Shown in pieces: positions 1,060 to 59,464 of a stretch of DNA of 64,000 bases (position 1 is the stretch's first letter; every line of letters starts with the position of its first letter). The notes beneath the pieces are model-generated. The model had not been told where the DNA came from, ran no database searches, and was given only the letters and a program-made list of their open reading frames with translations. This DNA comes from an uncultured Coriobacteriia bacterium (GTDB lineage: Bacteria > Actinomycetota > Coriobacteriia > Coriobacteriales > QAMH01), in NCBI GenBank assembly GCA_959608885.1, contig CAUHSG010000010.1, positions 2,441 through 66,440 of the forward strand. The letters run 5' to 3'. Position numbers and translations under genes: made by a program.

Positions 1060-1090
1060 GTGACAAAAGGCGCCGGGGACGTTTTGTCAC
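1060..1090. repeat. REP-like palindromic element type 1 (GTGACA arm variant, orientation B)
   Basis: GTGACAAAAGGCGCCGGGGACGTTTTGTCAC: inverted arms GTGACAAAA/TTTTGTCAC around a CGCCGGGG core. Confidence 0.8.
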
Positions 1091-1200
1091 GTTATAGTTC
1101 CCGTAAGTTTTCCTCGTGTGCAAAAACGCGTGTTTTTCTTGCATAGCGCATGGTCGCGGTATATCCTCAACGACAATTCCACTCCAGAGAAAGGTCGATC

Positions 1201-1752
1201 ATGTCAACTGATTTCATCGCCATTGGCGAACGCATCCGCGGCATTCGCGAGGCCTGCGACGTCACGGTCGAGGACATGGCCGCCGACCTCGATGTCGATC
1301 TGGAAACCTATATCCAATGGGAGGAGACGGGTGCCGACGTACCCATCTCGGCCATCTATCACATGGCGAACCGCTTTGGCATCGAATTCACCGAAATCCT
1401 GACAGGCAAGTCCGGGCACCTCGACACCTTCCACCTCATCAAGGCGGGCGAAGGCCGCGAGGTCGACCGCCTTCCGGGCTATCACTTCGAGGACCTTGCC
1501 TGGCGCTTCACCCGGAAGGACTTCCAGCCCCTGCTCGTCACACTTGATCCCCATGACGAGCCCGCGGAGCTCGTCGACCACCGAGGCCAGGAGTTCAATT
1601 ACATCCTCGAGGGCTCTATCGTCTTCACCTTCGGTGACCGCGAGATAGTCCTCGATGCTGGAGACTCCATCTTCTTCAACCCGGAACACAGGCACGGGCA
1701 GCGCTGCAACGGTAACGTACCGGCCAAGTTCCTCACCATCATTAGCGAATAA
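1201..1752 (+). CDS. XRE-family HTH regulator with C-terminal cupin domain
   Basis: N-terminal HTH (IGERIRGIREACDVTVEDMAADLDVDLETYIQWE) and a cupin-like C-terminus (GQEFNYILEGSIVFTFGD..AGDSIFFNPEHRH). ATG 1201 is preceded by GAGAAAGG. Confidence 0.8.
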   Translation: MSTDFIAIGERIRGIREACDVTVEDMAADLDVDLETYIQWEETGADVPISAIYHMANRFGIEFTEILTGKSGHLDTFHLIKAGEGREVDRLPGYHFEDLAWRFTRKDFQPLLVTLDPHDEPAELVDHRGQEFNYILEGSIVFTFGDREIVLDAGDSIFFNPEHRHGQRCNGNVPAKFLTIISE

Positions 1753-1781
1753 GACAAAAGTGCCCCGGCGATTTTTGTCAC
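1751..1781. repeat. REP-like palindromic element type 1 (orientation A)
   Basis: AAGACAAAAGTGCCCCGGCGATTTTTGTCAC overlaps the stop codon of the XRE-cupin gene. Confidence 0.75.
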
Positions 1782-1804
1782 GTTATTAAGGAAAGCATAG
1801 AACC

Positions 1805-3478
1805 GTGGATTACATACTCAGCAAATATTGCCCCCGCATCGAATTCGACTCGTACGAGGATTTCTACGACAACTTCAAGATCGACGTGCCCGAGAACTTC
1901 AACTTCGCCTACGACGTCGTAGACGAGTGGGCGCGTGTCGAGCCCGAGAAGAAGGCTCTCGTGTGGATCAACGACGCTGGCGAAGAGCGCGAGTTTACCT
2001 TCACGGACATTTCGCTGCTCTCCAACCGCGCCGCCAACGCCTTTTGGAAGCTCGGCATCCGCAAGGGCGACGTCGTGATGATAATGCTGCGTCGTCGCTG
2101 GGAATACTGGGTGTGCGCCATGGCGTTGTGCAAGATCGGCGCCTCGATCATCCCGGCGACCATCCAGCTCACCTCGAAGGACATCGCGTACCGCGCAAAC
2201 TCCGCAGCCGTCAAGATGCTCATCTGCGTCGATGACGACTACGTGGTCGAGCAGGTGGAGGGCGCCCTTCCCAACTCGCCCAGCATCAAGGAGAAGGTGC
2301 TCGTCGCGGGCAAACGCGACGGCTGGCTGTCTTTCGACGAGCTCATCGAGGACGAGAGCGACCAGTGGGAGCGCCCCACGGGCGATGATGCCACGCAAAT
2401 CGACGACATCATGCTCATCTACTTCACGAGCGGCACCACGGGTAACGCCAAGGCCGTGGAGCACAGCTTCAAGCACCCGCTCGGACACATCCTCACCGCC
2501 AAGTACTGGCAGCAGGTGCGCGAGAACCGCCTGCACATGAGCGTCACCGACAGCGGCTGGGCCAAGTTCGGTTGGGGCAAGATCTACGGTCAGTGGATTG
2601 CCGGCGCCGCGATCTTCGCCTACGACATGGACAAGTTCGTACCCGCTAAGCTGCTGCAGGTTATGCAAGACTACGACCTCGCGACCTTCTGCGCGCCGCC
2701 GACCATGTACCGCTTCATGCTGCAAGAGGACGTCGCTGCCTACGACCTCTCGTCCATCGAGAACTTCGCGACTGCGGGCGAGCCGCTCAACGGCGAGGTG
2801 ACCATCCAGTGGGAGAAACTCACCGGCAAGAAGATTCGCGAGGGCTTTGGCCAGACCGAAGGCCCCGTGCTGCTGGCGACCTATCCGTGGATCGAGCCGC
2901 GTCCCGGTTCCATGGGAAAGCCAAGCCCGCTGCTCAACATCAAGCTGCTCGATGACGACGGCTACGAGGTAGACGACGGTAGCGAGGGTGCTATCTGCGT
3001 TACCAGCCTCAAGGAGGCCTATCCGCCGGGTCTGTTCGTCGGCTACTACAACGACCCCGAACGCACGGCCGAAGCCGTAGGTGGCGAGTATTACAACCTG
3101 CACGACATGGCCTGGCGCGACACGGAAGGGTACTGCTACTTCGTCGGCCGTAACGACGACGTCATCAAGTGCTCGGGCTACCGCATCGGGCCCTTCGAGG
3201 TGGAAAGTGCGCTTGTGGCGCATCCGGCCGTCGTCGAGTGCGCGGTGACCGCCGCTCCCGACCCCGTGCGTGGCAAGGTCGTGAAGGCCTCCATCATCCT
3301 GGCCAAGGGCTACGAGCCGAGCGACGAACTCACGAAGGAGCTGCAGGACCACGTCAAGCACACGACGGCGCCGTACAAGTACCCGCGCATCGTGGAGTAC
3401 GTCGATGATCTACCCAAGACCATCGGCGGCAAGATCAAGCGCAAGATGATCCGTAACGCTGACGGGGTCAACGACTAG
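1805..3478 (+). CDS. AMP-forming acyl-CoA synthetase (medium-chain/ACSM-like)
   Basis: AMP-binding motifs LIYFTSGTTGNAKAV, GYRIGPFEVESAL and PKTIGGKIKRK. GTG start; 557 aa. Confidence 0.9.
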   Translation: MDYILSKYCPRIEFDSYEDFYDNFKIDVPENFNFAYDVVDEWARVEPEKKALVWINDAGEEREFTFTDISLLSNRAANAFWKLGIRKGDVVMIMLRRRWEYWVCAMALCKIGASIIPATIQLTSKDIAYRANSAAVKMLICVDDDYVVEQVEGALPNSPSIKEKVLVAGKRDGWLSFDELIEDESDQWERPTGDDATQIDDIMLIYFTSGTTGNAKAVEHSFKHPLGHILTAKYWQQVRENRLHMSVTDSGWAKFGWGKIYGQWIAGAAIFAYDMDKFVPAKLLQVMQDYDLATFCAPPTMYRFMLQEDVAAYDLSSIENFATAGEPLNGEVTIQWEKLTGKKIREGFGQTEGPVLLATYPWIEPRPGSMGKPSPLLNIKLLDDDGYEVDDGSEGAICVTSLKEAYPPGLFVGYYNDPERTAEAVGGEYYNLHDMAWRDTEGYCYFVGRNDDVIKCSGYRIGPFEVESALVAHPAVVECAVTAAPDPVRGKVVKASIILAKGYEPSDELTKELQDHVKHTTAPYKYPRIVEYVDDLPKTIGGKIKRKMIRNADGVND

Positions 3479-3504
3479 CACCTAGCATCCGTGCAAAATC
3501 GCAG

Positions 3505-59290: not shown

Positions 59291-59304
59291 TGGGCAAAAG
59301 AAAA

Positions 59305-59321
59305 GGGGCCATGAAGGCCCC
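59305..59321 (+). terminator. hairpin after R3
   Basis: GGGGCC-ATGAA-GGCCCC. Confidence 0.4.
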
Positions 59322-59330
59322 GGTTAGTCT

Positions 59331-59406
59331 TGGTGGAGGTAAGGGGGCTCGAACCCCTGGCCTCAGGCTTGCAAAGCCCGCGCTCTCCCAGCTGAGCTAT
59401 ACCCCC
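59331..59406 (-). tRNA. tRNA-Ala (anticodon UGC)
   Basis: The reverse complement is GGGGGTATAGCTCAGCTGGGAGAGCGCGGGCTTTGCAAGCCTGAGGCCAGGGGTTCGAGCCCCCTTACCTCCACCA. It folds as a cloverleaf with a G3:U70 pair, anticodon loop TT-TGC-AA, and an encoded CCA. Confidence 0.9.
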
Positions 59407-59428
59407 GTTTTCAAAACACGTGTCACGT

Positions 59429-59464
59429 AACCAGACAAAAGCGCTCCGGCGACATTTGTCTGGT
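59429..59464. repeat. REP-like palindromic element type 1 (orientation A) between the two tRNAs
   Basis: AACCAGACAAAAGCGCTCCGGCGACATTTGTCTGGT. Confidence 0.85.

Follow-up and report, generated by a model that had tools for sequence, protein, structure and literature searches.

Repetitive extragenic palindromic (REP) sequences and their companion HUH/Y1 enzymes, the REP-associated tyrosine transposases (RAYTs), have been studied almost only in Proteobacteria, where the REPs carry a GTAG foot. Class 2 of the TnpAY1 proteins is defined by the motif Y---NP (Quentin et al. 2018, PMC6006769). Canonical REPs with a GT[AG]G foot adjoin the genes of subclasses 2.2, 2.4, 2.5, 2.7, and 2.8, atypical hairpins adjoin those of subclass 2.6, and none were found for subclass 2.1 'by automatic or manual searches' (PMC6006769). 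Subclass 2.1, which has a C-terminal helix-turn-helix (HTH) extension and a Ser motif, was equated with the TIRYTs (PMC6006769). TIRYT genes are flanked by terminal inverted repeats (TIRs) that have the motif GGGGWSAS in common and in some cases make up moderately abundant families (Di Nocera et al. 2013, PMC3733652). The Actinobacteridae sampled in the survey carry IS200-type Y1 genes only (PMC6006769). Coriobacteriia are not named in the main texts of PMC3733652 and PMC6006769, nor in two supplementary files of the latter, and no paper connecting REP or RAYT with Coriobacteriia was found in the open-access literature. Here we describe a family of 37-bp palindromes and an adjoining RAYT-like gene in a 64-kb stretch of DNA from an uncultured Coriobacteriia bacterium (contig CAUHSG010000010.1, positions 2,441 to 66,440), which is referred to as the window. 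The repeats probably constitute the REP component of a REP/RAYT-type system (REPtron or TIRtron) belonging to an uncultured member of the Coriobacteriaceae from the human gut. The kind of element is known; what is new is its unusual form and its host among the gut Coriobacteriia, and it provides a clear case in a Gram-positive gut lineage.

A 37-mer consensus scan allowing up to 13 mismatches returned 18 copies in the window, compared with ~0.1 expected by chance and 0-1 matches in each of 20 shuffles. The arm AACCAGACAAAAG occurs 24 times with up to two mismatches, compared with 0.47 expected. The G+C content of the window is ~60%. The repeat unit reads AACCAGACAAAAG-TGCCCCGGCGA-CTTTTGTCTGGTT, and its most conserved part is the apex GCCCCGGCG. 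We defined the orientation of a copy as the strand on which the apex reads GCCCCGGCG; nine copies are (+) and nine are (-). The first-pass annotation of this DNA had listed 18 copies of the family in both orientations. Its consensus was correct, and the scan returned exactly its copies with an offset of 0-4 nt. The repeat also explains, as had been proposed there, the peptide strings that recur in the six-frame translation, such as NQTKVAGAVLSG and PDKTAPATDFW in the translation of 11900-12151(-). The family is one type, referred to as type A, within a wider superfamily of hairpins. Its copies are as follows, L numbers denoting loci of related genomes.

1057-1093, (-): REP copy, GTGAC...GTCAC arm variant; 2 nt past the stop of open reading frame (ORF) 698-1054(+)
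1748-1784, (+): REP copy; its foot AATAAGACA includes the TAA stop of ORF 1201-1752(+), and the next start codon is 20 nt on
5728-5764, (-): REP copy between the stop of a TauE-like gene (5787) and the start of a thiamine pyrophosphate-enzyme gene (~5699); L039 has a different hairpin type here
8145-8181, (+): REP copy that overlaps the aminotransferase gene 8180-9259(-) at its stop; kept in L039 and L034
12003-12094, 12003-12039(-) and 12058-12094(+): inverted REP doublet, 55 nt start-to-start, resembling a REPIN (REP doublet forming a hairpin)
19679-19715, (-): REP copy within the thymidylate-kinase ORF at its 3′ end, with the stop codon 32 nt further on; kept in L017 and L005
23956-23992, (-): distal upstream REP of the RAYT cassette, overlapping the TGA stop of a ComF-like gene
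24143-24179, (-): proximal upstream REP of the RAYT cassette; the start codon of the RAYT gene is 27 nt on
24970-25006, (+): downstream REP of the RAYT cassette, overlapping the RAYT TAA stop and the TGA stop of a convergent Na+/H+ antiporter gene
30107-30198, 30107-30143(-) and 30162-30198(+): inverted REP doublet, 55 nt start-to-start, between convergent cobW-like and adenosylhomocysteinase (AdoHcyase) genes
31541-31577, (+): REP copy upstream of the AdoHcyase gene, 20 nt from its start; L052 has the same type and L033 another type
32575-32611, (-): REP copy abutting the FeoB stop
36080-36116, (+): REP copy 28 nt past the stop of the Na+/H+ antiporter-family gene 36145-38040(-)
41013-41049, (+): REP copy 3 nt past the stop of a HicB-like ORF and followed by a terminator at 41059-41091; kept in L028
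52129-52165, (-): REP copy, GTGAC...GTCAC arm variant, intergenic
59429-59465, (+): REP copy between tRNA-Ala and tRNA-Ile; kept in L024, L049, and L026

A single strand of the repeat, either DNA or RNA, is predicted to fold into a 14-bp stem with one bulged G, two G-C pairs, and a CCCG tetraloop. The fold energy of the 37-bp unit is -14.3 kcal/mol for DNA (z -7.6) and -20.9 kcal/mol for RNA. The two strands differ because of the bulge and the apex, and this difference defines the orientation. In a logo built from 148 distinct copies, taken from the window and from related DNA, the information content is at background beyond positions -2 to +38. Hence, the element is ~37-40 bp long and its flanks are not conserved. 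On the GCCCCGGCG-reading strand, the 5′ foot is more conserved than the 3′ foot. Covariation supports the pairing of the stem. Cells of the stem are paired in 78-80% of cases in sets of 18 window copies and 75 distinct copies, and compensatory changes are present. Two-sided changes occupy 10 cells in the 18 copies (4.7 ± 1.8 in shuffles, 1/500) and 60 cells in the 75 copies (35.6 ± 4.2 in shuffles, 0/500), while the covariation score of the 18 copies is 0.141 compared with 0.085 in shuffles (0/500) and at most 0.066 with the partners slid. The arm variants with mirrored changes reported in the first-pass annotation are thus real. The pair between positions 14 and 24 occurs as T-A, C-G, G-C, and T-G, and frequent mismatches at pairs 12-26 and 13-25 give a recurrent internal loop beneath the apex. 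The 37-bp unit is an imperfect stem-loop within the 20-40 bp of the short palindromes in the REP definition. An Rfam 15 search of the window at the family gathering scores returned a raiA motif and two tRNAs only, with no family at any repeat copy. The canonical foot was looked for as GTRG-N5-GACAAA, which has no match in the window, and GT[AG]G does not appear in the logo of 148 copies. The element therefore lacks the foot of the canonical GTAG/CGTC REP superfamilies, to which it does not belong, and is REP-like in mechanism and arrangement.

The RAYT-like gene lies between copies of the repeat.

24207-24971, (+): RAYT-like HUH/Y1 tyrosine transposase of 254 aa, inside ORF 24030-24971 with Pfam Y1_Tnp

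The 254-aa product is the likely protein of the longer ORF, and its sequence is identical to a public metagenome protein. It scores 44.9 bits against Pfam Y1_Tnp (cut-off 23), and matches positions 2-145 of the 146 in the NCBIfam profile 'REP-associated tyrosine transposase' (NF047646) with an E-value of 2.8e-20 and 72.7 bits. The HuH motif N62-H63-F-H65, the class-2 Y---NP motif Y122-IHK-N126-P127, Q102/R104, and W140-S-S are invariant in 25 homologues. In the profile of these 25 sequences, the motifs align with HMH and YIYINP of 4er8, and the best PDB match of the profile is 4er8_A, the E. coli TnpA-REP; a single-sequence phmmer search of the PDB returned noise only. The AlphaFold2 model has a pLDDT of 87.8. 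Its top Foldseek match is again 4er8_A (E = 1.9e-7, TM 0.71, rmsd 2.7 over 142 columns), followed by the IS608 and ISDra2 TnpA at ~2e-4, an E-value ~1000-fold worse. The invariance of the HuH and Tyr residues argues that catalysis is retained. The positions aligned to the GTAG-reading residues W94, Q95, E100, H101, and R104 of the E. coli protein are F101, Q102, S107, E108, and D111, respectively. This poor retention is consistent with the absence of a GTAG foot. The protein has ~110 additional C-terminal residues ending in a conserved helix pair (...LSIRQIERLTGIGR...), with the tail motif ...LS[IV]RQIERLTG[IV]... The helical tail has a pLDDT of 85-94. Matches of this region to HTH families (HTH_3, HTH_23, HTH_7, and others) are all sub-threshold and occur in 2-6 of the 25 homologues.

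The RAYT gene is present as a single copy in the window. With the REPs at 23956(-) and 24143(-) upstream and that at 24970(+) at the stop codon, the two sides of the gene are mutually inverted. Taken together, 24207-24971 is a chromosomal gene for an HUH/Y1 single-strand DNA transposase of the REP-associated class with an HTH-like tail. The first-pass annotation had held the repeats to be a REP family kept as a hairpin rather than ordinary terminators. That view is supported, and the transposase gene with its flanking inverted copies gives it a stronger basis than was known at that time.

We examined the RAYT homologue in eight other genomes, either by protein look-up or by tblastn on fetched loci. 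In all eight, the homologue occupies the same locus downstream of the genes for TopA and a ComF-like phosphoribosyltransferase, and is flanked on either side by inverted copies of a single hairpin type of its own. The layout is seen in L043, L062, L064, L067, L068, L069, and L071 among others, and the pairing of RAYT and hairpin is found in nine of nine loci. Each genome examined has one RAYT per fetched locus set. The foot (C/G/T)(A/G)GACAA(A/T) is constant across the RAYT loci while the apex varies with the protein, as listed below by RAYT identity to the window protein.

100%, window: apex GCCCCGGCG
78%, L067: apex GCCCTGGCA
67%, L068: apex AGCCCGGCG
63%, L069: apex GACCCGGGA
62%, L062: apex ..ATAC-ACAGG-GTAT..
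55%, L071: apex ..AAGTTCG-TCCG-ACGAACTT..
54%, L043: apex ATGCTCAGTCTCG
52%, L064: apex ..ATGG-ACAGG-TCAT..

The parallel change of RAYT and apex across genomes is directly observed in this series, and at identities of 62% or lower the apices are unrelated to the window apex. The hairpin type flanking the RAYT gene of L062 occurs at least eight times in 20 kb. RAYT identities are 51-67% where the neighbor proteins are 86-99% identical, so the gene has either evolved fast or been exchanged as alleles in cassettes. In one genome, L115, the RAYT gene is missing from the syntenic locus (~2850-3300, reverse strand), where a solo hairpin AATGAGACACATCGGACAGGTACAGCTGTCTCATT lies between the stops of the ComF-like and antiporter genes. 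A stretch of ~100 nt between the two upstream REPs (window ~24039-24142) is kept in the 100%, 78%, and 67% alleles and is missing from the more distant ones; a consensus fold of this leader over the three alleles (window, L067, L068) has no covariation. The stretch may serve as a promoter, a leader, or a small RNA. Roughly 2,000 homologues of the RAYT were found. Metagenome contigs with RAYT homologues are mostly 1-3 kb long, which suggests that metagenome assemblies break at the RAYT-flanking repeats and that such loci are under-represented in metagenome-assembled genomes (MAGs).

The locus has much in common with the E. coli REP/TnpA-REP (4ER8) and Pseudomonas REPIN-RAYT systems. They share short dispersed intergenic palindromes, an HUH/Y1 gene that is single-copy, here in the DNA examined, and has inverted copies on its flanks, a locus that is apparently passed on vertically, inverted doublets with a fixed geometry, and one repeat type per RAYT lineage, and 4ER8 is the best structural match of the window protein. 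Different from these systems, the repeat has no 5′ GT[AG]G foot and the GTAG-reading residues are not kept; the apex, instead of the stem, is the most conserved as well as the diversifying part; the protein is ~90 aa longer with an HTH-like tail; and the host is a Gram-positive actinobacterium, in which the copies probably number in the tens and are locally clustered. With the TIRYTs or TIRtrons of subclass 2.1, the window protein shares the class-2 Y1 core, the Ser motif after the Tyr helix, and apparently a C-terminal HTH-like extension. Its HuH-to-Y distance of 59 aa is likewise 2.1-like, and its architecture as a whole resembles that described for the subclass. Both also have inverted repeats on their flanks, in part self-complementary and grouped into moderately abundant families, and the window foot [T/A]G[G/A]GACAA matches the TIR motif GGGGWSAS at 5-6 of 8 positions. 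Unlike subclass 2.1 as described, with no REP-like sequences (PMC6006769), the flanks here are clear hairpin repeats dispersed in the genome. Subclass 2.6 of Bacteroidetes likewise has atypical flanking structures without GT[AG]G, copies elsewhere in the genome, and a downstream Ser motif, but its HuH-to-Y median is 82 aa (59 in the window protein), it has an alphaC-beta4 insertion, and no HTH tail is described (PMC6006769). The IS200/IS605 TnpA proteins (IS608, ISDra2) have the HUH/Y1 fold in common with the window protein, and IS200/IS605 elements recognize subterminal single-strand hairpins. In contrast to the window gene at its fixed locus, these are multi-copy mobile insertion sequences with a different Y motif and a weaker structural and profile match.

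Comparison with relatives, which had been recommended in the first-pass annotation as a check for insertion polymorphism, revealed presence or absence of copies and replacement of types at orthologous sites. Gain, loss, and replacement are thus directly observed. Neither L034 nor L017 has the 12003-12094 doublet at the corresponding site. In place of the doublet at 30107-30198, L033 carries a single copy and L052 a hairpin of another type. At the site past 27569, the window has a hairpin of another type and L043 has type-A copies. The orthologues of the REP at 32575-32611 in L033 (4919-4955) and L052 (4704-4740) have the apex in the opposite orientation, through either loop inversion within the palindrome or independent insertion at the same spot. 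The copies at 8145, 19679, 41013, and 59429 are kept across species. Five pairs of orthologous copies compared by eye have ~20 differences in 185 nt (~89% identity), which is no higher than the 80-92% of the flanking DNA, and extra purifying selection is therefore not claimed. Five distinct (-)(+) doublets, two of them in the window, are all 55 nt start-to-start with a conserved spacer of ~GTGACATCTGTCAC. As inverted pairs with a short spacer that recur as a unit, they correspond to REPINs; singlets predominate.

We scanned one genome per species, 185,579 species genomes in total, with a strict type-A pattern. It occurs almost only in ~7 uncultured human-gut MAGs of Coriobacteriia, Coriobacteriaceae, and Collinsella. 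The pattern has no match in viral contigs and 116 matches in metagenome contigs, mostly from human gut. Of the 11 matching contigs in a gut sample holding the same species, four map to the window. The window is 80-92% identical to three pattern-bearing MAGs and 97-99% identical to contigs of one gut sample. It has nine strict matches, compared with 14-20 in whole relative MAGs, of which 3-4 fall in the orthologous region. The window holds 0.28 copies per kb, compared with 0.023 further copies per kb in 822 kb of metagenome DNA fetched around single matches. Type-A copies are thus ~6- to 12-fold denser in the window region than elsewhere, and the very high density reported in the first-pass annotation, correct as 18 copies in 64 kb, is local to the window and not genome-wide. 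An extrapolation of 18 copies per 64 kb to ~600 copies genome-wide was rejected, as the relative MAGs and the metagenome loci are far sparser. Per genome, the family probably amounts to tens of copies, with a concentration around the RAYT gene. Near the end of the window, gyrB (partial), gyrA, tRNA-Ile(GAT), and tRNA-Ala(TGC) stand in a row without rRNA (59331-59615(-) and 59784-63999(-)). This arrangement is typically origin-proximal in Actinobacteria; oriC itself was not seen here. The local clustering could reflect local hopping near the RAYT gene or proximity to the origin.

Based on homology and arrangement, we infer that the transposase would act on single-stranded DNA by recognizing the folded hairpin, two parts of which would matter. 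The constant foot GACAAA/TTTGTC would be one of them, and the asymmetric apex, comprising the bulged G, the two G-C pairs, and the CCCG tetraloop, would be the allele-specific determinant. The transposase would cut and rejoin DNA via Y122, and single hairpins and 92-bp inverted doublets would be slowly copied or moved to intergenic positions, for the most part at the 3′ ends of genes. The catalytic action on these hairpins, the site of cleavage, the direction of causality, and a host benefit such as mRNA 3′-end protection are likewise proposed. A further reading, which we hold tentatively and rate slightly below an even chance, is that an HTH-tailed class-2 Y1 transposase is a genuine mobilizer of hairpin repeats in Coriobacteriia with its specificity written in the apex and not in a GTAG foot, that enzyme and substrate have diversified together step by step, as recorded in the allelic series at the fixed locus, and that copies gather near the gene or the replication origin. 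An HTH-bearing Y1 protein would then be linked to true dispersed hairpins, in a class reported as REP-less. The graded enzyme alleles at one locus with matching apices also offer a natural basis for finding the determinants of HUH hairpin specificity.

Several observations weigh against the assignment to a REP/RAYT-type system or against its activity. The repeat has no canonical GT[AG]G foot, the 72.7 bits of the protein fall under the equivalog cut-off of 80 for NF047646, and Q95 is the only GTAG-reading residue of the E. coli protein that is kept. In MGYG-HGUT-02686, type-A copies persist though the syntenic RAYT gene is flanked by a different hairpin type; hence, the cognate pairing is not absolute. 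No copy differs at the strain level among the 97-99% identical contigs, which indicates that any activity is slow or extinct and that turnover, though real, is slow. The polymorphic sites are all replacements or type swaps without clean insertion boundaries or a target site, so that the inserted unit, a target motif, and a duplication are not definable from them. The copy number outside the window appears to be low.

The positions of the copies bear on the alternatives. Genes in the window were called by codon usage and checked with Pfam, and 90% of the window is coding. The copy centers are intergenic in 15 of 18 cases (P = 7.5e-13 in a 90%-coding window), and three copies fall within ORFs. 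Eight copies overlap a stop codon or are at most 3 nt away from one, and 11 are within 30 nt. In the first-pass annotation, most copies were placed within a few nt of stop codons; the tendency holds, but it does not extend to most copies, and three are inside ORFs. The foot carries TGA on either strand, which may explain the frequent overlap with stop codons. Several copies separate co-directional genes with the next start codon merely 20-28 nt on. The apex orientation has no bias with respect to the transcribed strand.

An alternative that we consider unlikely is that the palindromes are duplex operator or architectural sites for the HTH of a domesticated and immobile Y1 protein, which would make the family a binding-site regulon or else a feature of the nucleoid or of replication near the origin. 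The conserved C-terminal tail with its weak HTH-family similarity in several homologues would suit this role, as would inverted arms of 13-14 bp for dimer binding. The window has one RAYT gene, whose locus is fixed and whose inheritance is apparently vertical; strain-level polymorphism is absent; and the copies are concentrated near gyrB-gyrA. However, the catalytic HuH and Tyr are invariant in 25 of 25 homologues, and the compensatory changes keep a pairing that a duplex operator read by sequence does not need. In addition, the sites are at gene 3′ ends instead of promoters, and related genomes have gained, lost, and exchanged copies.

Less probable still is that the hairpins are terminators or mRNA 3′-end stabilizers that arose in place, with convergent similarity and an incidental transposase neighbor. 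The first-pass annotation had noted that few copies are followed by a U-tract, and a terminator consensus scan agrees with it, as none of the nine copies in 22-42 kb was called terminator-like as a unit. Canonical GC-rich T-tailed terminators do exist at 41059-41091 and 41751-41780, one of them bidirectional. The former starts 10 nt past the REP at 41013, and hence the repeat is not the terminator at that site. In favor of such a role, actinobacterial terminators often have no U-tract, and the RNA hairpin is stable at -20.9 kcal/mol. The eight copies at or within 3 nt of a stop and the 11 within 30 nt, together with the several copies kept at orthologous sites across species, also speak for it. 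Nonetheless, sequence identity reaches the unpaired apex and the bulge, beyond structural need, and the apex orientations are unbiased with respect to transcription. Copies are located 20-28 nt before co-directional start codons and inside ORFs, and the RAYT-hairpin pairing recurs in nine of nine loci. Beside their role as REPs, the hairpins may have a secondary role at the RNA level.

That the RAYT gene and its flanking hairpins are an ordinary autonomous IS200/IS605-type insertion sequence, with the dispersed copies as solo ends or derivatives resembling miniature inverted-repeat transposable elements, is equally improbable, since the Y1_Tnp domain, the hairpins at either end of the gene, the 'empty' site with a single hairpin in L115, and the frequent breaks of metagenome assemblies around the gene (many 1-2-kb contigs) are outweighed by the same chromosomal locus in every genome examined over 51-78% protein identity, one copy in the window and in all fetched DNA per genome, a fold and profile nearer to TnpA-REP than to the IS608/ISDra2 TnpA, a class-2 'Y---NP' motif (PMC6006769), and the lack of a TnpB partner and of viral-contig matches.

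Beyond type A, at least five further hairpins in the window share the foot ((A)ATGAGACA...TGTCTCAT(T)) and differ in their inner sequences.

23404-23432: other-type hairpin TGAGACAAATGG-ACAGG-TCACTTGTCTCA, inside the ComF-like gene, same foot
27572-27602: other-type hairpin TGAGACA...TGTCTCA, directly past the stop of an IF-2B-family gene, same foot; L043 has type-A REPs here
35337-35369: other-type hairpin, same foot, AATGAGACAGATGCTCTGAGCAGCTGTCTCATT
39372-39404: other-type hairpin, same foot, AATGAGACAAATGCCCTGGGCAAATGTCTCATT
59729-59763: other-type hairpin, same foot, GATGAGACAGCTTGGTCAGACCAAACTGTCTCATC

The hairpin inside the ComF-like gene (DZR and phosphoribosyltransferase domains) separates the zinc-ribbon part from the phosphoribosyltransferase part. 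Its counterparts are at the same place in L062 (9523-9559), L064 (9407-9435), and L043 (~1810-1845), each being of the local hairpin type.

For the annotation of gut MAGs, the repeats matter in that they seem to break metagenome assemblies and to create in-frame fusions or tail extensions, and bound an inversion. A 762-aa ORF at 11348-13636(-) contains RlmL-type domains (RlmL_1st, THUMP, UPF0020) and an RlmK-type Methyltrans_SAM domain. Its rlmL-like and rlmK-like parts are joined in frame by ~30 codons from the REP doublet at 12003-12094 (...YANQTKVAGAVLSGSKMPVKTPDKTAPATDFW...). In L034 and L017, where the doublet is absent, a TGA stop followed by an 8-nt gap and an ATG keeps the two genes apart. 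The doublet thus seems to have created a fusion like the E. coli RlmKL. The thymidylate-kinase ORF at 19647-20375(-) runs through the REP at 19679-19715 and encodes 242 aa, whereas its counterparts in L062, L064, and L071 have 220-233 aa, so that the repeat adds a C-terminal tail. The block Na+/H+ antiporter-IF-2B-TatA-TatC-HypA-cobW-like (window 25002-30111) is inverted between genomes. The window and L071 (10796-15944) have it in one orientation, and L062 (10783-15877) and L064 in the other. The block is edged by hairpin repeats on either side (24970 and 30107/30162 in the window), which suggests that the inversion is repeat-mediated.

Toxin-antitoxin-type genes are found near two REPs. A BrnT/BrnA-type pair at 52342-52915(-) is close to the REP at 52129, and a HicB-like antitoxin ORF at 40611-41009(+) is close to that at 41013. 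The raiA RNA motif (Rfam RF03072, 155 bits) is located at 11068-11309(-), upstream of the gene at 10033-11034(-), and is consistent with an actinobacterial host. The window also contains three very large ORFs at 41807-44764(-), 46532-49723(-), and 53016-57644(-), which encode 985, 1063, and 1542 aa, respectively. The 1063-aa ORF has no Pfam match at E ≤ 1e-5, and the other two contain Listeria-Bacteroides repeat domains and probably encode surface proteins.

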